Program-made: the position numbers and the translations under genes
Shown: piece after piece, positions 9,404-55,932 of the stretch
Numbering within the stretch: the first letter of the stretch is position 1
Layout of the letters: every line of letters begins with the position of its first letter
From: a virus
Taxonomy: Duplodnaviria > Caudoviricetes
Length of the DNA stretch: 60,040 nt
IMG/VR virus record: IMGVR_UViG_3300025083_000025
Location: 1-60,040 of that record
Strand: one strand, 5' to 3'
The notes under the pieces: model-generated
Databases searched by the model: none
What the model was told of the DNA's origin: nothing
The model's input: the letters and a program-made list of their open reading frames with translations, nothing else

Positions 9404-9459
9404 GGCTTCCAAAGGATTCGAACCTTTACCAATGCAAAGCATTAGCGACCATCGGAGCC
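9404..9459 (-). ncRNA. tRNA-like structured element 2
   Basis: Canonical T-arm AAAGG-TTCGAAT-CCTTT with a GGCTCC/GGAAGCC acceptor-like stem; only 56 nt long. Confidence 0.55.
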
Positions 9460-9472
9460 AACCACAGCGCAT

Positions 9473-9757
9473 TTACGCTGGTCTTAGGCACATAGTCCCG
9501 GGATTAATCCACTCGAAATACCAACCAGCCCTCTCAGCCCATCTATTAAGATGGTTAACAACACCGAAGGTATAAACCTCCTCACTCGAAGCCAACTCCC
9601 AATAATCAAACAAGGGAATTCCGTTGCGGTCGGTCGTTCCGTCCTCAGCACTCATAACAATGGCCATGTCAGGGCCGTCAACCCACATATCCTCATGGAT
9701 AGTGAGTGAAGGGTAGGTACTACCCAAAATTGAAAGCATTTTTGCTCGTGTTCTCAT
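9473..9757 (-). CDS. Hypothetical phage protein
   Basis: Motif LFDYW...YTFGV...GWYFEWINPGT; directly downstream of a promoter. Confidence 0.7.
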   Translation of the reverse strand: MRTRAKMLSILGSTYPSLTIHEDMWVDGPDMAIVMSAEDGTTDRNGIPLFDYWELASSEEVYTFGVVNHLNRWAERAGWYFEWINPGTMCLRPA

Positions 9758-9783
9758 AGTCGAAATTTGTTTGTTTGACGTTG

Positions 9784-9829
9784 CAAATGAACGGCGACAT
9801 TTACTGATCCTTAGTTAATGAAATGTTAA
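9784..9829 (-). promoter_or_regulatory. Early promoter: TTAAC-N6-TTAAC box + -7 variant
   Basis: TTAACATTTCATTAAC (9829-9814), 22 nt, TTCATTTG (9791-9784). Confidence 0.7.
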
Positions 9830-10024
9830 AGCCGTTAAATTAATTTTCACCCCTTTAGGGGTATTCATCGGATTATCTCTCGTATGCTCCCTACGTCGAT
9901 TGTGCCGTAGGTCTTATGCACTCTTACAAGGTAACGCTGGGCCTCAAGCCATACTTTATGGCTCGAGGGTGTACAGCCTTCATAGACCTTAACAGCGTTA
10001 GATATTCTATCTAATTCGTTCATA

Positions 10025-16433: not shown

Positions 16434-16673
16434 ATGGAACTTATTAGAAAAATCATTATCGGGCAAAACCCGAAAGATGCCATGGCTTACTATGTGGGGC
16501 AGAAGGCAGGAGAGTCAGTAATTGATTCTATCATATTAGACGACAGATGTTTTGTCAAACACGGAATTCGTCGCTATCTTGTATACATCTACAATAAAGA
16601 ACAGGGCATAATGCTTTGGAAAACAGTAGATGATATGCCAGTATTAATTGAACATGATTGTGACTTCGAATGA
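16434..16673 (+). CDS. Hypothetical phage protein upstream of packaging genes
   Basis: MELIRKIIIGQNPKDAMAYYVGQ; coupled to the next gene. Confidence 0.7.
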   Translation: MELIRKIIIGQNPKDAMAYYVGQKAGESVIDSIILDDRCFVKHGIRRYLVYIYNKEQGIMLWKTVDDMPVLIEHDCDFE

Positions 16674-17233
16674 TTGTAATTGATAATTTCATAAAAGACA
16701 CGGATCTGTTGATGGATCTTGAACTTAACAAAGAACACTTATTTAGTGATAACGGATCTTACTACTGGTGGAACGGATGGTGGAACTCACCAGACGATAC
16801 ATTAAAGAAAAGACTAATCTGTTATATATGGAGAGACTACCCTCCGTATGGATCTGTGGCTTTAGACGGCTTTGAGTACTGGACCGGACAATACGGTGAA
16901 GGTAAAGCAGTCTCTGATCTAAACATGCACTTAGATAAAGACGAAGCCCTTTGGAAATCAGAAGGTATAGTAAAGGCTCCTGTTATAGGTACAGTGTTCT
17001 ATCCTGTTGAAATGGATATAGAGGGAGGTTACCTTGAGATATTCTCCAATGGGGCGGACAATGAGCCTGAAAGAATCCAAGCAAAGCATAATAGGTTAAT
17101 CATATTTGACGCAGGTAACATTCATCACAGAGTTACAACTGTAACCAAAGGAACAAGATCTGCTATTGCAATAAACCTTTGGGATGAAGCACCTACAACA
17201 GAATTAAAGTTTGAGGCTCCAGAACCAATATGA
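16670..17233 (+). CDS. 2OG-Fe(II) oxygenase (prolyl-4-hydroxylase-like)
   Basis: HxD (HLDKDE), GGYL, NRLIIFD, distal H (HRVT) and R (TRSAIAIN). Confidence 0.85.
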   Translation: MIVIDNFIKDTDLLMDLELNKEHLFSDNGSYYWWNGWWNSPDDTLKKRLICYIWRDYPPYGSVALDGFEYWTGQYGEGKAVSDLNMHLDKDEALWKSEGIVKAPVIGTVFYPVEMDIEGGYLEIFSNGADNEPERIQAKHNRLIIFDAGNIHHRVTTVTKGTRSAIAINLWDEAPTTELKFEAPEPI

Positions 17234-23168: not shown

Positions 23169-29368
<6,200 letters not shown>

Positions 29369-29369
<1 letters not shown>

Positions 29370-29563
29370 TGGCAACAACAGAGAATTACTACATACAAGA
29401 CATTGTAACCAGCGACGTCCTTTTGGATGATGGAACTTGGGCGAGAGATGACGATGCCTCTAACGCAAAGACATTCTCTGACCGCTCCAGCGCTGTTACT
29501 CATATAGACACACTTAATAACGGTACATACAGAGTCTATTCGAGAATTGTAAAGACGAATTAG
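29369..29563 (+). CDS. Small hypothetical protein coupled to the collagen gene
   Basis: TAATG overlap; MATTENYYIQDI... Confidence 0.65.
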
Positions 29564-29610
29564 ATAACGTATCTTTATTGATGCAATAGTTAATTTAATT
29601 GTATCAACAA

Positions 29611-31860
29611 ATGGTCATTGTATTCCATGCAGGATATTATGCAAGTGCTTGGAACCCATATTATAACTCTGAAGGAATAGGAGGAACAGAGCAATGTATA
29701 ATGGGTTTATCAAGGTCGCTTGCTCTACAAGGCCATAGTGTTTTCGTAGTAGGTCAAGTCAAACCTGTCTCCGATAAATACCCCAACAGCGGATCCCTTA
29801 ATTATGTAGATCTAAAAAACATAAGTGAAATCCCAGATATAGATATACTAATCGGTGTATCATATATTCACTACCTAAAGTATTACAGCCTCAAGCCTAC
29901 AACTAAGAAGATATTTTGGCTACATAATGAGCATCCCCACTACTGGTACAAAGGCCAGCGTATGTCTGACGTAGATATAAAAGATGCTTATCTAAACACA
30001 GACACAATTGTTTGCCTTACCAATTGGCATAAAGAATACTTTATTAGGAATGAGGCCCCGGCTCATTTGTCAAAAGATAAAGTAAAGGTAATTGGAAACG
30101 GCCTTGACACATCGCTGTTTGAACCTGTTACCATCAAGAATAAAGATTCTTATATATACACATCTCATCCCGAACGAGGACTTGATGCAGTAATTAGTGA
30201 TATTGAAAAAGGATACCTTGATGGTACTCTCGATATATGTACACCTGGTTATGGTTTGGAGTACTACAATCAAAACTTTTCTGAGCGTGTATCTAAATTA
30301 GAAGGCGTTACTTTTCACGGTAGCCTTTCAAATAAAGAGTTGTATAAACTAATGTCTAAGTGTGAGAGTTGGTATTACCCCACTACATACAATGAAACCT
30401 ATTGTTTAACAGCGATCGAGATGTTGGGACATCATGTAAGACCTTTGGTAAATCCTATTGCTGGTCTCAAAGAAACTTTAAATAAGTTTAGCAAGCATAT
30501 AACGGATTGGTCTAAGGTTGATGAATATGTTAAGTCTCGTGACTGGAAGTTGGTAGCGAAAGAATGGGAAATTTTATTTAATAAAAAGGAAAGCCTTATG
30601 ATTCAAAAAGTCTATGTAATATCTATGGATACTTCTGACAAAAAGTTAATGGAGTATACAATAAGACTAAGGGAAGCAGGTATTGATTGCGAAGTAGTAA
30701 TAGTACCAGGTGTAGATGCAAGATCTTTTAAGGATTACAAATGGTCTCCACATGATTCATGGGCTATGGACAGTGATAATAAATGGTGGAACCAACCAGT
30801 AACAGTTGGTGAGATGGGTTGTGGTTTAGCGCATTTAAATACTTGGAAAAGAATAGTACAGGATCAAACAGAGGTTGCTTTAATATGTGAGGAAGACTTC
30901 TTCTTTAAAGGTAAAATAGATTACTCAATCATTCCTGATCCAAGCACATGGGATATGCTTTACTTAGGGCGCAGAGCAATGGCTCCAGATAGAGATGATT
31001 ACGGAGATATTGTAGTTCCTGGATACTCTTATAACTTACATGCTTATATGGTTACTCAAGCCGGTGCATTATCTTTTACTCAGCATAACTTTCAGGAGTA
31101 TATAACAGCGGCAGATGAATTTGTTCCTGCTACTTATTGTGTCCATCCACGAGGCGATTGGGATTGGGTAACAAGAGACACTCGTGCACTTGCATTAAAA
31201 GAAGACATTGCTTTTCAATCGTCTAATGATAACACAAGTAGGACTCAGTCCACTGTTCACGAAGAGATTTTTAAATCGGGTAAATGGCCTGAATGGGTAT
31301 CTAAGTGGATTCACCCCGCTGCAAAGACAAAGGCTTGGGACATGATACTTGAAGAGCCTATACAAGATGTAATATCCTTCCCGCTGTTTACTGAGGAGTT
31401 TTGTGAATTGCTTATAGATGAAGCAGAGCAGAAGGCTTTATGGCAAACTAAAAGACATGATTTTTATCCAACAGTAGATACATTAATTTCTTCATTTGGA
31501 TACGATGAAATATACAAGCGTGTTCTGGAAGATTTTGTTTTTCCGGCAGCGATAAGCAGATGGCATCTTCATGGTAAAGCCTGGGCAGAAATGGATAGTG
31601 AAAACTTTCTGATTAAGTATACTACAGATACACAGGGTCACTTAGATCTGCATCATGACAATGCTGTTATTAGTTCGGTACTAACTTTGAACAAAGACTA
31701 TACAGGGGGCGGTACATATTTTTATAATCAAAAACAAACACATGTAGGAGATGTAGGACACGTCGCTATTCATCCTGGCCAGGTTACCCACAGGCATGGC
31801 GGTAGACCAATACATAGTGGTAAGAGGTATATACTTGTGTCGTTCTGTAATAAGAAATAG
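29611..31860 (+). CDS. Tri-domain enzyme: GT4-like glycosyltransferase + GT25 (COLGALT-like) + PLOD-like lysyl hydroxylase
   Basis: GT4: GGTE, IGNGLD, YTSHPERGL, ETYCLTAIE. GT25: VPGVD, GEMGCGLAH, EED, WDMLYLGR, YSY..HAY, DEFVP. PLOD: FPLFTEEFC, PTVD, HHD, GGGTYF, HPG..TH.H, GKRYILVSF. Confidence 0.88.
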   Translation: MVIVFHAGYYASAWNPYYNSEGIGGTEQCIMGLSRSLALQGHSVFVVGQVKPVSDKYPNSGSLNYVDLKNISEIPDIDILIGVSYIHYLKYYSLKPTTKKIFWLHNEHPHYWYKGQRMSDVDIKDAYLNTDTIVCLTNWHKEYFIRNEAPAHLSKDKVKVIGNGLDTSLFEPVTIKNKDSYIYTSHPERGLDAVISDIEKGYLDGTLDICTPGYGLEYYNQNFSERVSKLEGVTFHGSLSNKELYKLMSKCESWYYPTTYNETYCLTAIEMLGHHVRPLVNPIAGLKETLNKFSKHITDWSKVDEYVKSRDWKLVAKEWEILFNKKESLMIQKVYVISMDTSDKKLMEYTIRLREAGIDCEVVIVPGVDARSFKDYKWSPHDSWAMDSDNKWWNQPVTVGEMGCGLAHLNTWKRIVQDQTEVALICEEDFFFKGKIDYSIIPDPSTWDMLYLGRRAMAPDRDDYGDIVVPGYSYNLHAYMVTQAGALSFTQHNFQEYITAADEFVPATYCVHPRGDWDWVTRDTRALALKEDIAFQSSNDNTSRTQSTVHEEIFKSGKWPEWVSKWIHPAAKTKAWDMILEEPIQDVISFPLFTEEFCELLIDEAEQKALWQTKRHDFYPTVDTLISSFGYDEIYKRVLEDFVFPAAISRWHLHGKAWAEMDSENFLIKYTTDTQGHLDLHHDNAVISSVLTLNKDYTGGGTYFYNQKQTHVGDVGHVAIHPGQVTHRHGGRPIHSGKRYILVSFCNKK

Positions 31861-32021: not shown

Positions 32022-32315
32022 ATGGCAGGAAGTAAGTACAGCAACATACTAAAACGATATAGACTCAAGGGTTTTAATCAACCTAAGCGGACTCCAGATC
32101 ATCCTAAAAAGTCACATATTGTAGCGGCTAAAGAAGGAGACAAGGTTAAGATTATTCGTTTTGGAGAGCAAGGAGCATCAACAGCGGGTAAGCCAAAGGC
32201 AGGTGAATCTGATAAGATGAAAAAGAAACGTGCGTCATTTAAAGCACGTCACGCTAAGAACATTAAGAAGGGTAAATTCTCTGCTGCTTATTGGGCCAAT
32301 AAAGTAAAGTGGTAA
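32022..32315 (+). CDS. Small basic phage protein
   Basis: PKRTPDHPKKSH...KIIRFGEQG...SFKARH...SAAYWANKVKW; TATATTTG at 32010. Confidence 0.75.
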   Translation: MAGSKYSNILKRYRLKGFNQPKRTPDHPKKSHIVAAKEGDKVKIIRFGEQGASTAGKPKAGESDKMKKKRASFKARHAKNIKKGKFSAAYWANKVKW

Positions 32316-32497
32316 TGGCTAAGAAGTACAAATCAAAAGTAAATCAATCAGGAAACTACACTAAGCCAGGAATGCGTAAGCGTTTGTTTAAAAGAATTAT
32401 GGCTGGTACTAAGGGGGGAAGAGCAGGACAGTGGTCTGCCCGTAAAGCACAGATGTTAGCGAAAGCCTATAAAGCCGCAGGGGGCGGATACAAATAA
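32315..32497 (+). CDS. Small basic phage protein (DUF5872-like)
   Basis: GNYTKPGMRK...GQWSARKAQMLAKAYKAAGGGY. Confidence 0.7.
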   Translation: MAKKYKSKVNQSGNYTKPGMRKRLFKRIMAGTKGGRAGQWSARKAQMLAKAYKAAGGGYK

Positions 32498-32745
32498 TGC
32501 CACCAGGTTTAAAAAAAGCACAAGAGTCCTTAAAAAAATGGACTAAACAAAAGTGGCGTACTAAATCAGGTAAGGCCTCATCTAAGACAGGAGAGCGCTA
32601 CCTACCTACAGCGGCAATTGCGGCGTTGTCTGATGAAGAGTACAATGCAACTACAAGAGCGAAAAGAGAGGGTACAAAAAAAGGAAAGCAATATGTTCCT
32701 CAACCCAAAGCCGTTAAAAAGAAGACTAAGGTTTACCGAGCATAG
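32497..32745 (+). CDS. Small basic phage protein (DUF5872-like)
   Basis: SLKKWTKQKWRTKSGK...TGERYLP. Confidence 0.7.
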   Translation: MPPGLKKAQESLKKWTKQKWRTKSGKASSKTGERYLPTAAIAALSDEEYNATTRAKREGTKKGKQYVPQPKAVKKKTKVYRA

Positions 32746-54258: not shown

Positions 54259-54768
54259 TTATGGTTTCAATTCGTAATAAGGTGAGTATGCGTATCTTAG
54301 GTTCCAGGCCTTCACTTCTGCTGGTGTAAAATCGCCTACAAGGTAATCTTCGGGTGATGTAAACAGTATAAATACTACTATATCAGAGACCTCTTTATCG
54401 ATAGCATATTTGTTTGCCTTGAATGTATTCTCACAAGTCTTAATACTGATCTTTTGAGTCTCTCCATTCTTTACTACATGAATGTCCGGATCATCTGTTA
54501 CATCCTTTGTTTGTTTCAACAGCGTAGACACTGTGTATCTTGAGTACTCTGGTGTGATTTCATAGTAGTACCTTACTAACAACTCTCCAAGTATCCCTAA
54601 GTATTCAGTGTAATATTCACGAGGTACCTCACCCAGTAGTAAGGATTTTTTAGTTCCGGTCCTCTGTTTGTTTGTCCCCTCATATCTTTTCTTATTCGCT
54701 TCTATTCTCCTGAGAGTTAAGTCATCAGAATATTCTTTAAGATAAGACGGGATAGGTAGCCGGTTCAT
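54259..54768 (-). CDS. Putative PD-(D/E)XK-fold endonuclease
   Basis: GILGE...DPDI...ISIKT arrangement of candidate catalytic residues. Confidence 0.45.
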   Translation of the reverse strand: MNRLPIPSYLKEYSDDLTLRRIEANKKRYEGTNKQRTGTKKSLLLGEVPREYYTEYLGILGELLVRYYYEITPEYSRYTVSTLLKQTKDVTDDPDIHVVKNGETQKISIKTCENTFKANKYAIDKEVSDIVVFILFTSPEDYLVGDFTPAEVKAWNLRYAYSPYYELKP

Positions 54769-55730
54769 GACAATCCTTTTAAGCGTTCTTTATTAAGAGT
54801 TGATAGATCATAGTGTTCCTTAACGTACTCATATAGATTGTTGGCCAGCCTCCATGCTTTAGTTATATTCATATCCTTGATCTCTCTGCGCCAGTCAGAT
54901 GGAGACTTACAAAGTATGCCGGTTTCGTTATGTATGATTACTTCTTTATATGGGGTAACACTGCTTGCTATAATTGCAGTCTTAGTATATCCCGCTTCAA
55001 CTACTTTCAATTCTGATTTACATTTATTGAACACACTCTTCTTTAGTGGAGATAGTGATACATCAAAGAACTTGTACAGTTGTGCGTATTGAGTTATGTC
55101 TACGGGGTTCATACGATACTTAGCCTTTAATCTGTCGGCATAGTCCATGAGATTCATGCTGTATAATTCGTAGTCTTCAAAGGTCATACCCATCTCATCC
55201 AGATCTTTCTGGTGACCATTAGCACCAAGGTATCCAAACCTTACTTTAAAGTCTGGATTACCATCTTTCTGTTGATCAGCCCACTGCTGTTCTTTCTCGT
55301 ATACTGTATTAGGGATAAGTCTATAAACAGCGTCAGGATTAATCTTCTTCATCATCGTAATAAGGTACGAGGATGGTGACCAAATCTCATCTGCTATTTT
55401 AATTGTATTGGTAATGTTAGGGCCTTCCTTTTTTTTGTAATGCTCATAGGCTGGATTATCTTTAGGTAGGTTCCAGTAGTCATCGTTATCCAGAATAAGT
55501 TTGACGTCATTGTTCTTTAAGAACTTTTTAAATTCTTTGTGATCAGAGACGCTACATCTCCTGGACACCACAAGGTTTTTTATTTGAGACAAGTCCCATT
55601 CCTTCATCTCATTAAAGTCCTCAAAGAAATGGATCTGTAATCCTTCTTCTTCTTTAAGTCTTAGGAACGGAGTCATTAACCTATGATAGTTAATACCGTT
55701 TAGCCCATCAAGATAAATCAGTGTCATCAT
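54765..55730 (-). CDS. GT-B (GT4-like) glycosyltransferase
   Basis: GINYHRL..P, LILDNDDYW, IPN, RFGYLG..H..DL and SPL...FNKCKSELKVVEAG. Confidence 0.8.
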   Translation of the reverse strand: MMTLIYLDGLNGINYHRLMTPFLRLKEEEGLQIHFFEDFNEMKEWDLSQIKNLVVSRRCSVSDHKEFKKFLKNNDVKLILDNDDYWNLPKDNPAYEHYKKKEGPNITNTIKIADEIWSPSSYLITMMKKINPDAVYRLIPNTVYEKEQQWADQQKDGNPDFKVRFGYLGANGHQKDLDEMGMTFEDYELYSMNLMDYADRLKAKYRMNPVDITQYAQLYKFFDVSLSPLKKSVFNKCKSELKVVEAGYTKTAIIASSVTPYKEVIIHNETGILCKSPSDWRREIKDMNITKAWRLANNLYEYVKEHYDLSTLNKERLKGLS

Positions 55731-55932
55731 AATACTCAAGTAATACAGAGCGAATCATATCAAACTCTGCATCAATGTCTCTTTTAAACTTTCTGATTGT
55801 ATTGTGTAATCGCTCTGCGTCAGAACGAGGATCTCCTGAAGAGTCGTGTAGACTCTCATACAACTCAGTAGCCGCATCATGCATTCTACTGGTTGCCAGG
55901 AAATAAATCTTACTTAATGATTTTGTATCCAT
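55708..55932 (-). CDS. Hypothetical protein
   Basis: Tandem overlapping ORF. Confidence 0.6.
   Translation of the reverse strand: MDTKSLSKIYFLATSRMHDAATELYESLHDSSGDPRSDAERLHNTIRKFKRDIDAEFDMIRSVLLEYYDDTDLS

Follow-up and report, generated by a model that had tools for sequence, protein, structure and literature searches.

To our knowledge, glycosylation of collagen hydroxylysine is regarded as an animal trait, and the only characterised exception is mimivirus. The mimivirus protein in question, L230, was reportedly characterised by Luther et al. in 2011. It is described as a bifunctional collagen lysyl hydroxylase and hydroxylysine glucosyltransferase (PMC9614988, PMC5802723, PMC9546862), and its substrates are collagen-like proteins encoded by the virus itself, poor in proline and with Lys at the Y position (PMC9614988), a likeness to the phage case proposed here. 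A further mimivirus enzyme, R699, is a proven Gal-Hyl glucosyltransferase (PMC9546862). In the animal pathway an inverting step is followed by a retaining step (PMC12003778). For bacteria, operons that pair collagen-like proteins with 2-oxoglutarate (2OG) dioxygenases were predicted by Iyer, Abhiman, de Souza and Aravind in 2010 (PMC2938197). The fusion of a GT25 domain with a lysyl hydroxylase (LH) domain is already known and characterised in L230, and novelty at the locus described below lies in the phage context, in the GT4 module and in how tightly the enzyme is linked to a lysine-rich substrate gene. Searches of titles and abstracts outside subscription journals turned up no paper on a phage lysyl hydroxylase or on a phage GT25-LH enzyme.

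The window, that is the whole stretch of 60,040 nucleotides that was analysed, is a complete 60-kb record of a marine phage. Its plus strand contains an open reading frame that begins at 29599 (TTG) or 29611 (ATG) and ends at 31860. ORF calls, domain searches and an N-terminal consensus define this as a three-domain enzyme gene (29611..31860, 749 residues plus stop), with the start at ATG 29611 agreeing with the consensus MxIVxYxGY of 78 aligned homologues. The product consists of a GT4-type GT-B domain (residues 1-325), a GT25 domain (330-540) and a 2OG/Fe(II) oxygenase domain (552-749). Its AlphaFold2 model has a mean pLDDT of 90.6 and a pTM of 0.57, the latter meaning that the relative placement of the domains is not defined. 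We propose, with a probability of roughly 0.7, that this protein is a phage enzyme with three activities that modifies collagen lysines, its target being the fibre protein of the neighbouring upstream gene. The proposal is based on the homology and fold of the domains, the invariance of catalytic residues, the constant linkage to collagen-like genes among relatives, and the enrichment of Lys at Y in the linked collagens relative to controls.

A GT4-GT25-lysyl hydroxylase architecture had been proposed in an earlier sequence-only reading of this DNA, and Pfam, PHROG, phmmer against the PDB and Foldseek all confirm it. That reading also called the architecture unusual, its order being the reverse of the expected reaction order. 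A GT ahead of an LH is not unusual, as L230 combines an N-terminal GLT25D1-like glycosyltransferase (GT) with a C-terminal LH domain (PMC9614988), and the LH domain of LH3 is C-terminal as well. Nor is the three-domain arrangement a chance event, since it is common to 158 of the 184 relatives collected (BLAST domain calls) and 432 IMG/VR stretches encode relatives of the enzyme.

The C-terminal domain (31264..31857, plus strand) is assigned to the PLOD/L230 type of lysyl hydroxylase by alignment with L230 and LH3 and by Foldseek. Residues 571-747 match phrog_61 (PHROG, E 1.3e-29), and the match to PF25238, at 27.2 bits, lies under the cut-off of 31. When phmmer was run against the PDB, residues 552-747 aligned with human LH3 (1.2e-21) and mimivirus L230 (5e-22); with a profile of the 78 homologues these values became 1.4e-40 and 1.6e-38, and no other 2OG oxygenase in the PDB was matched at E <= 0.01. 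The predicted domain has a double-stranded beta-helix fold superposable on L230 and LH3. In Foldseek it aligned with 6ax6_B over 199 columns (TMt 0.84, rmsd 1.9 A, 32% identity), and LH3 entries topped the list. The Fe triad H681/D683/H729 (HHD at 31651-31659, H729 at 31795-31797) and the 2OG ligands Y670 and R739 (31825-31827) are each invariant in 78/78 homologues; their counterparts in L230 are H825, D827, H877, Y814 and R887 (PMC5802723). Residue L873 of L230, which sits in an aromatic pocket in a tail-to-tail, Fe-stabilised homodimer, aligns with V725, and the position remains hydrophobic throughout (I in 66/78, V in 12/78). A two-copy complex prediction for residues 552-749 scored 0.22 against a mark of 0.42 and was counted neither way.

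The central domain (30598..31230, plus strand) resembles the GT2 domain of COLGALT1 in both its PF01755 match and its COLGALT1 alignment. The Pfam match covers residues 332-436 at 44.2 bits (cut-off 24), and phmmer placed residues 358-517 on human COLGALT1 at 1e-11. The COLGALT1 match to the GT25 part, 1.8e-12 with the single sequence, reached 4e-31 with the 78-homologue profile, which spans only chain positions 308-528 of COLGALT1, i.e. the whole GT2 domain. By contrast, a bacterial GT25 protein of solved structure in the PDB reached a mere 6e-5 with the same profile. The non-catalytic GT1 domain of COLGALT1 was not found in the phage enzyme, whose N-terminal domain is a GT-B instead. These profile scores bear on the suggestion that the protein is a Rosetta-stone fusion of COLGALT and LH activities. 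The modules are indeed COLGALT-like and PLOD-like rather than members of unrelated bacterial families, but the Rosetta-stone aspect is not new, as the L230 fusion has been characterised and the LH3/COLGALT1 complex has been solved (8zgc).

The residues known to be important in COLGALT1 are the EDD metal motif, Cys412 of the uridine pocket and the essential Asp522 and Trp495 (PMC12003778). The EDD motif aligns with E427-E428-D429 of the phage enzyme (30889-30897), and L230 has a metal motif of the same E-D-D type (PMC9614988). C404 and D502 align with C412 and D522. Conservation among the 78 homologues is high at E427 (78/78), D429 (77/78), C404 (75/78) and D502 (77/78), with position 428 being D in 16/78. 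As judged from the alignments, all catalytic residues checked across the enzyme are kept except the one at the position of W495. The residue aligned there is N475, with N in 55/78 sequences, and the replacement of a residue essential in COLGALT1 stands against the proposed function. The sugar of the phage GT25 domain is not fixed by homology, since the GT25-like counterpart in L230 uses glucose (PMC9614988).

The N-terminal domain (29611..30585, plus strand) is a GT4-type GT-B glycosyltransferase according to PF13439, Foldseek and the EX7E motif. The PF13439 match (residues 23-168) is marginal (29.8 bits; cut-off 28.5), residues 34-304 match a PHROG glycosyltransferase, and homologues also match PF00534 and PF13692. 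EX7E, a mark of retaining GT-B enzymes, is formed by E262 (30394-30396) and E270 (30418-30420), both invariant in 78/78 sequences. The Foldseek matches are retaining GT-B enzymes, namely MshA (3c4q), an alpha-1,2-glucosyltransferase (8x3q, TMt 0.68) and glycogen synthases. The domain therefore has the Pfam GT4 N-terminal domain, the two-Rossmann GT-B fold and the EX7E motif of the family, and Pfam and Foldseek uphold the contrast drawn earlier between this GT-B/GT4 N-terminus and the GT-A domains of PLODs. PF25342 (GT_PLOD) gave no Pfam match in the phage enzyme, and no middle PLOD-like region was found.

The proposed substrate is a collagen-like fibre protein of 2066 residues (23169..29369, plus strand; Pfam Collagen 1.4e-167). 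The enzyme gene begins 242 nt downstream of the fibre gene on the same strand, and no second collagen-like ORF occurs in the 60-kb window. The protein contains 422 G-X-Y triplets in 30 runs together with twelve 42-aa modules. Its C-terminal 151 residues form a TNF/C1q/BclA-like head (AlphaFold2 pLDDT 89) for which Foldseek returned BxpB (8e-7), BclA (1wck, 3tyj), TNF and the C1q-like 9lkk. The fibre tips are exchangeable among relatives, with L032, L038, L042 and L054 ending in a chaperone-like motif that we take to be Peptidase_S74-like. Lysine occupies 219/422 Y positions and 0/422 X positions, so that 219 of the 252 lysines of the protein lie at Y; Thr is the runner-up, at 76/422. Lys at Y could instead aid the stability of the triple helix, which is an argument against the proposed function: K-G-E/D is a known stabilising pattern of the collagen triple helix, and G-E or G-D follows 84 of the 219 Y-lysines. 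Between the two genes lies a 64-aa ORF (29369..29563, plus strand) whose ATG overlaps the TAA stop of the fibre gene (TAATG). Homologues occur in the same place at L017, L026, L028, L031, L033, L034, L036 and L040, and the ORF has no Pfam or NCBIfam match. The enzyme gene lies within the structural module, with portal genes to one side and capsid genes to the other. Another ORF of the window, 16670-17233, showed no homology to the DUF6445 ORF of relatives.

Linkage of enzyme and collagen is a constant feature of the family. Of 61 three-domain loci from IMG/VR, 53 extend 2.9 kb or more upstream of the enzyme gene, and every one of these carries a collagen-like ORF immediately upstream in the same orientation; each of the six loci that show no such ORF has less than 1.8 kb of upstream DNA. 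In 32 de-duplicated enzyme-linked collagen ORFs the median share of Lys at Y is 36.5% (minimum 12%), and Lys at X is almost never seen. This is contrasted by a median of 1% (maximum 37%) in 46 control collagen-like ORFs (Mann-Whitney p = 5e-13), which came from 77 IMG/VR loci chosen by a lysine-blind DNA pattern; at these control loci there were 0 LH matches, one weak GT25 match and one weak GT4 match.

Public annotation points in another direction. Relatives are named 'GR25 family glycosyltransferase involved in LPS biosynthesis', 'cell wall biosynthesis', 'GT25 / LPS biosynthesis' or 'hypothetical', LPS biosynthesis also figures in the family names of GT4 and GT25, and PHROG places the domains in the category 'moron, auxiliary metabolic gene'. 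On that view the enzyme would be a host-directed moron that alters LPS or envelope glycans of the host, or a non-collagen protein, with the collagen neighbour being incidental. We consider this very improbable given that the oxygenase is specifically PLOD/L230-like, that the collagen gene is present at every locus with enough upstream DNA, that Lys at Y is enriched over controls, and that the gene sits between portal and capsid genes in the structural module. L230 itself bore the same 'LPS' annotation until collagen modification was shown (PMC9546862). The stand-alone GT25-LH loci L077-L080, L087 and L088 lack any collagen ORF within 10 kb, an observation that stands against action on a neighbouring fibre. 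In four such contigs that were checked, collagen-like stretches were present elsewhere in three and absent from one, which is 39% complete.

For the preferred collagen-modifying function, homology suggests the following order of steps. The C-terminal 2OG/Fe(II) domain would convert Lys at the Y position of G-X-K to hydroxylysine, and the central GT25 domain, which belongs to an inverting family, would then add a first hexose to the new hydroxyl, perhaps galactose as in COLGALT1 or glucose as in L230. In the third and weakest step the N-terminal GT4 domain, a retaining GT-B, may add a second, alpha-linked sugar, taking the place of the PLOD-type GT-A of LH3, of mimivirus R699 and of GT25-GT_PLOD-LH relatives. 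The last of these include P0136, which carries a PLOD-type GT instead of GT4 (PDB matches to R699 at 8e-27 and to the LH3 GT domain at 2e-26). The proven activity of R699 and the inverting-then-retaining order of the animal pathway also favour this third step. The virion would then carry a proline-poor collagen stalk, heavily glycosylated and ending in a TNF/C1q-like tip.

The third step has a competitor. GT4-LH proteins that lack GT25 make up 6/184 relatives, and 11 GT4-LH loci have no GT25 match within 10 kb, 8/11 of them with an upstream collagen ORF. Such proteins mean that GT4 may glycosylate hydroxylysine directly, or Thr/Ser at Y, in parallel with GT25 rather than extending its product. 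The abundance of Thr at Y in the fibre would fit this arrangement, as BclA-type collagen stalks are O-glycosylated on Thr. We nevertheless regard a parallel GT4 as possible but doubtful, because in GT25-GT_PLOD-LH proteins and in the long L230-like forms the partner of GT25 is a GT of the kind that extends Gal-Hyl, and two transferases competing for one hydroxyl within one polypeptide would be less economical.

The boundary between the GT4 and GT25 domains (30586..30600, plus strand) comprises a linker of residues 326-329 followed by an internal ATG at 30598-30600 (M330), and is defined by pLDDT and by split-gene relatives. The sequence-only reading had placed this ATG (MIQKVYVI) at the domain boundary behind an A-rich stretch, which is correct; the preceding TTTAATAAAAAGGAAAGCCTT is A-rich. 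Residues 326-328, immediately ahead of M330, are the sole AlphaFold segment with a pLDDT below 50. The Met aligned with M330 is also the first residue of stand-alone GT25-LH proteins, and in the split genes of L093 and L089 the TGA stop of the GT4 gene overlaps the GT25-LH start codon as ATGA. The best reading of ATG 30598 is that it is probably a fusion scar, left from the start codon of a once separate GT25-LH gene after its fusion with a translationally coupled GT4 gene upstream, as it is homologous to the split-gene start codon overlapped by the GT4 stop. Counts of fusion and fission on LH trees (at least 10) run too high, since short contigs contribute gene fragments, and for this reason we rely only on split loci verified in the DNA.

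It had been proposed that ATG 30598 is instead a working internal start, giving a shorter GT25-LH isoform beside the full protein. Its location exactly at the boundary behind a disordered linker and the natural stand-alone proteins that open at the aligned Met are in keeping with this, as is the presence of Met in the boundary columns of 43/111 fused or truncated rows from two separate clades. Scored with a start-site matrix derived from 78 roughly called gene starts of the phage, ATG 30598 reaches 1.45, the 41st percentile of true starts, while the annotated start scores only 0.39. Yet among 377 internal in-frame ATGs, 26 others equal or exceed this score. In three of the closer relatives, P0005, P0007 and P0008 (54-57% identical overall), M330 gives way to I or K; the Met is also missing from many clades, and a recent fusion of ATGA-coupled genes would by itself leave a Met. 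An AAGGA ahead of ATG 30598 is unlikely to matter: its reading as a Shine-Dalgarno sequence was rejected because the gene starts of this phage lack such motifs (4/78 gene starts versus 43/377 internal ATGs). We therefore think a second isoform unlikely.

The GT25-LH part of the enzyme has 2638 clusters (50% identity) at E <= 0.001 and 104 at E <= 1e-30. A tblastn search of INPHARED, from which records near the window may have been left out, partly matched 10/50,697 records (<=39% of the query), none with the full architecture. When cellular genomes were scanned with the family alignment, only one of 58 pattern matches was a relative, weak and confined to GT4, which is weak evidence of absence as both patterns lie inside the GT4 domain. 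Among RNA sequencing runs, none was listed as containing the phage, and shares did not exceed 0.13. Region searches with the LH domain and with residues 218-641 of P0136 found metagenomic proteins only, among the 120 matches listed for each. A bolder and rather improbable extension would be that tailed phages of marine bacteria glycosylate the hydroxylysine of collagen fibres with one polypeptide (Lys to Hyl to hexosyl-Hyl to dihexosyl-Hyl), a non-homologous GT-B/GT4 being the counterpart of the GT-A domain of animals and giant viruses. The GT25-LH core would have been shuffled with GT4, with a PLOD-type GT or with no third module over thousands of viral lineages, and an old viral toolkit would lie behind the LH/COLGALT pairing of giant viruses and perhaps of animals.

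The locus places animal-type collagen-modifying enzyme modules in ordinary tailed phages, at scale and in physical linkage with genes for lysine-rich collagen fibres. Should the chemistry be confirmed, it would represent a new kind of modification of phage virion proteins. It would also offer compact enzymes, maybe well expressed in bacteria, for making hydroxylated or glycosylated recombinant collagen, a use for which the mimivirus enzymes are valued (PMC9546862). The natural fusions and fissions (GT4|GT25-LH, GT4-LH, GT25-GT_PLOD-LH) would in that case help to assign roles to the modules.

Several known systems share parts of this arrangement. The operons of Iyer et al. rest on the same idea, namely that co-encoded dioxygenases hydroxylate prokaryotic collagen-like or tail-fibre-like proteins, with further modification afterwards. 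They combine beta-hydroxylase/PhyH-family dioxygenases with sulfotransferases rather than a PLOD-type LH with GT25/GT4, and they lie outside phage structural modules (PMC2938197). BclA, C1q and adiponectin-type proteins have a collagen stalk and a TNF/C1q-like trimeric head like those of the phage fibre, which differs in being phage-encoded and much longer, with its 422 triplets broken by the twelve modules. Mimivirus R699 and R655, a putative GLT25D homologue that the family profile matches at 1.8e-7, likewise constitute a viral set for collagen glycosylation, but as separate genes, and the protein of the window has no R699-type domain.

Human LH3 (PLOD3) and COLGALT1 (GLT25D1) together hold the same two catalytic modules as the phage enzyme and share its expected chemistry, from Lys to Hyl to glycosyl-Hyl. 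The animal modules reside in two separate ER proteins, whereas the phage has one chain, from which the extra GT1 domain of COLGALT1 and the GT-A and accessory domains of LH3 are all absent; the second sugar would be added by a GT-B/GT4 domain in the phage and is added by a GT-A in LH3. L230 is alike in having a GT25-like (GLT25D1) GT N-terminal of a PLOD-type LH in one chain, and the two LH domains are 32% identical (TMt 0.84) with the same Fe and 2OG residues. The phage protein is shorter (749 versus 895 aa) and has an N-terminal GT4 GT-B domain instead. Presumed metagenomic relatives of L230 carry a PLOD GT between GT25 and LH (GT25 plus GT_PLOD in 8/10 long proteins scanned), and in the LH-domain tree these long L230-like forms make up a clade (43 rows, SH-like support 98) separate from the group that contains all GT4-bearing forms. 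Unlike L230, the phage enzyme belongs to a virus with a bacterial host, and its gene adjoins that of its presumed substrate.

The enzyme (29611-31860, +; 749 aa) starts at ATG 29611, the family consensus N-terminus being MxIVxYxGY. Pfam, PHROG and PDB searches place a GT4 domain at residues 1-325, a GT25 domain at 330-540 and a 2OG/Fe(II) oxygenase domain of lysyl hydroxylase (LH) type at 552-749, which confirms the three-domain order described by the sequence-only reading. An AlphaFold model built from a 78-homologue alignment has a mean pLDDT of 90.6 with residues 326-328 as the sole disordered stretch, and its pTM of 0.57 leaves domain packing undefined. Foldseek matched this model to human LH3, COLGALT1 and the LH domain of mimivirus L230 (TMt 0.84, rmsd 1.9 A), and matched its N-terminal part to retaining GT-B enzymes (MshA, glycogen synthases and an alpha-1,2-glucosyltransferase). 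When the enzyme-family profile was compared with the PDB, LH3 (1.4e-40), L230 (1.6e-38) and COLGALT1 (4e-31, spanning the entire catalytic GT2 domain) scored best, followed by mimivirus R655 (1.8e-7) and a bacterial GT25 protein (6e-5), and no 2OG oxygenase beyond LH3 and L230 was found at E <= 0.01. In this test the GT25 and oxygenase domains thus do not fall among unrelated bacterial families.

Alignment also points to the predicted catalytic residues. The key LH residues of L230 (Y814, H825, D827, H877 and R887; PMC5802723, available text) correspond to Y670, H681, D683, H729 and R739, which are invariant in 78/78 homologues. For COLGALT1, the available text of PMC12003778 gives C412, an unusual E-D-D metal motif, an essential W495 and D522. 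In the GT25 domain C412 aligns with C404, the E-D-D motif with E427-E428-D429 and D522 with D502, while W495 is not kept, N475 occupying the aligned position. Within GT4, E262-x7-E270 is invariant among homologues.

The internal ATG at 30598, which encodes M330, had been considered a possible start for a shorter GT25-LH product. The first residue of stand-alone GT25-LH proteins (about 430-440 aa) aligns with M330, and a GT4 gene lies directly upstream of the stand-alone gene in 10 of the 23 loci fetched. At two of the loci (L093 and L089) the TGA of the GT4 gene overlaps the GT25-LH ATG as ATGA, so the two genes are translationally coupled and would be fused by a one-base shift. The boundary columns hold Met in 43/111 fused rows, and the M330 position is I or K in three relatives (P0005, P0007 and P0008) of 54-57% overall identity. 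Shine-Dalgarno motifs precede 4/78 gene starts of this phage, which does not use them, and the start-likeness of ATG 30598 is ordinary (rank 27 of 377 internal in-frame ATGs). Internal initiation at this site is possible but unsupported; from these comparisons we read ATG 30598 as a fusion scar.

We propose that the substrate is the collagen-like fibre encoded just upstream (23169-29369, +; 2066 aa). Its 422 G-X-Y triplets carry Lys at 219 Y positions and at no X position; Pro is scarce: it takes 12 X positions and does not appear in the list of Y residues. Among the 61 three-domain IMG/VR loci, a collagen-like ORF lies directly upstream on the same strand in 53/53 with at least 2.9 kb of upstream sequence; of the eight short-flank loci, two have a truncated collagen ORF and six have <1.8 kb upstream. 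Many of the 61 are near-duplicates, and de-duplication left 32 distinct collagen ORFs. These were compared with 46 distinct collagen ORFs from 77 control IMG/VR loci, which a collagen DNA pattern blind to lysine had picked; this control samples the collection arbitrarily, not at random. Lys at Y had a median of 36.5% (minimum 12%) in enzyme-linked ORFs versus 1% (maximum 37%) in control ORFs (Mann-Whitney p = 5e-13), and the 77 control loci gave no LH match.

The C-terminal 151 aa of the fibre are predicted to adopt a TNF/C1q/BclA-like jelly roll fold, and among relatives this tip is exchanged for other domains, much as in receptor-binding fibres. TNF/C1q-like tips occur in the window (28914-29366) and 14 loci; others are also seen, including a chaperone-like tip (VKPI...GV.FDW...GVIAQEL) in L032, L038, L042 and L054. 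Such exchange suggests that the tips serve as host-range modules on a shared, putatively modified stalk. A Laminin_G_3/concanavalin-like lectin ORF of ~303 aa lies 3' of the collagen gene in L042 (8299-9207; PF13385, 1.4e-11), L038 (8294-9205) and L054 (8860-9774). Eleven loci (L033, L034, L036, L038, L039, L040, L042, L055, L057, L059 and L066) have a ~184-aa ORF between the collagen and enzyme genes, at about 9450-10001 in most, its end abutting the enzyme start. It has an H-x-D...H-like pattern, matches DUF6445 in L034 (PF20043, 1e-12; the other ten are similar by eye) and is absent from the window. One 81-kb viral contig (L025 and L051) carries two different cassettes, with enzymes 95% and 45% identical to that of the window; either this phage has two fibre systems or the assembly is chimeric.

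The 60,040-bp record is 100% complete (CheckV, IMG/VR) and has a typical tailed-phage gene arrangement: large terminase (18180), portal (20318), a 132-aa ORF, the collagen-like gene, a 64-aa ORF, the enzyme gene, three small basic ORFs, a 386-aa ORF and virion structural protein phrog_13704 (34523), with more virion proteins beyond. The phrog_13704 protein, probably a capsid protein from its gene position, is 31.7% identical to Flavobacterium/Cellulophaga podophage counterparts, and because of this resemblance the host is likely to be a marine Bacteroidota. The 64-aa ORF (29369-29563, +), whose ATG overlaps the fibre-gene stop (TAATG), is kept at the same site in at least eight related loci, had no match in family searches and could be a fibre assembly factor. 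The three successive, very basic Lys/Arg-rich ORFs (32022-32745, +; 97, 62 and 82 aa) lie just 3' of the enzyme gene, and the first (32022-32312) had no NCBIfam match. Another glycosyltransferase gene (54765-55739, -; phrog_7162, 2.7e-38) lies amid replication genes on the opposite strand. A second 2OG-Fe(II) oxygenase, unrelated to that of the enzyme (16670-17233, +; 187 aa; PF13640, 2e-7; weak phrog_61), is unlikely to be a prolyl 4-hydroxylase of the fibre because the fibre has almost no Pro at Y.

The 184 collected proteins comprise 158 GT4-GT25-LH, 20 GT25-LH (fragments among these) and 6 GT4-LH forms. A further large group is GT25-GT_PLOD-LH, one member of which (P0136) matches GT_PLOD at 2e-46 and, in a PDB search, the mimivirus Gal-Hyl glucosyltransferase R699 at 8e-27. 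Its residues 218-641 retrieved 737 proteins at E <= 1e-5; the 120 matches listed are mostly GT25 plus GT_PLOD, the remainder being shorter GT25-LH forms. One protein found with this query (P0335; 454 aa, GT25 Pfam match) is recorded on a ~104-Mb contig, a size suggesting that a eukaryotic chromosome-scale assembly holds the gene, whether as an integrated copy or as a contaminant. GT25, GT_PLOD and LH occur together in long proteins of about 850-1000 aa (8/10 scanned), which resemble L230 as published (895 aa, N-terminus 27.7% identical to GLT25D1 and C-terminus 35% to PLOD1; PMC9614988, available text). In an unrooted LH-domain FastTree with weak deep branches, the long forms make one clade (43 rows, support 98) and every GT4-bearing form belongs to a second large group (81 rows, support 87). 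The GT25-LH core thus pairs, by domain composition, with a variable third transferase, and because of this pairing GT4 is predicted to add a second sugar. Alternatively, GT4 may act on hydroxylysine directly, a reading compatible with 11 loci where GT4-LH occurs and GT25 is absent from the surrounding 10 kb.

The sequence-only reading was correct in its observation and is supported in part only in its interpretation as a fusion of COLGALT and LH activities: the profile indicates that the domains are COLGALT- and LH3-like, but a GT25-LH fusion that acts on viral collagen is already known from L230. The complex of human LH3 and COLGALT1 is likewise already solved, and hydroxylation of bacterial collagen-like proteins by other dioxygenase families has been predicted (PMC2938197, available text). 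Against these known systems, four features appear new, and our literature search found no account of them: that bacteriophages encode a PLOD-type LH and a COLGALT-type GT, that a GT4 module is attached, that Lys-at-Y collagen fibre genes are near-obligate neighbours, and that the enzyme family is abundant.
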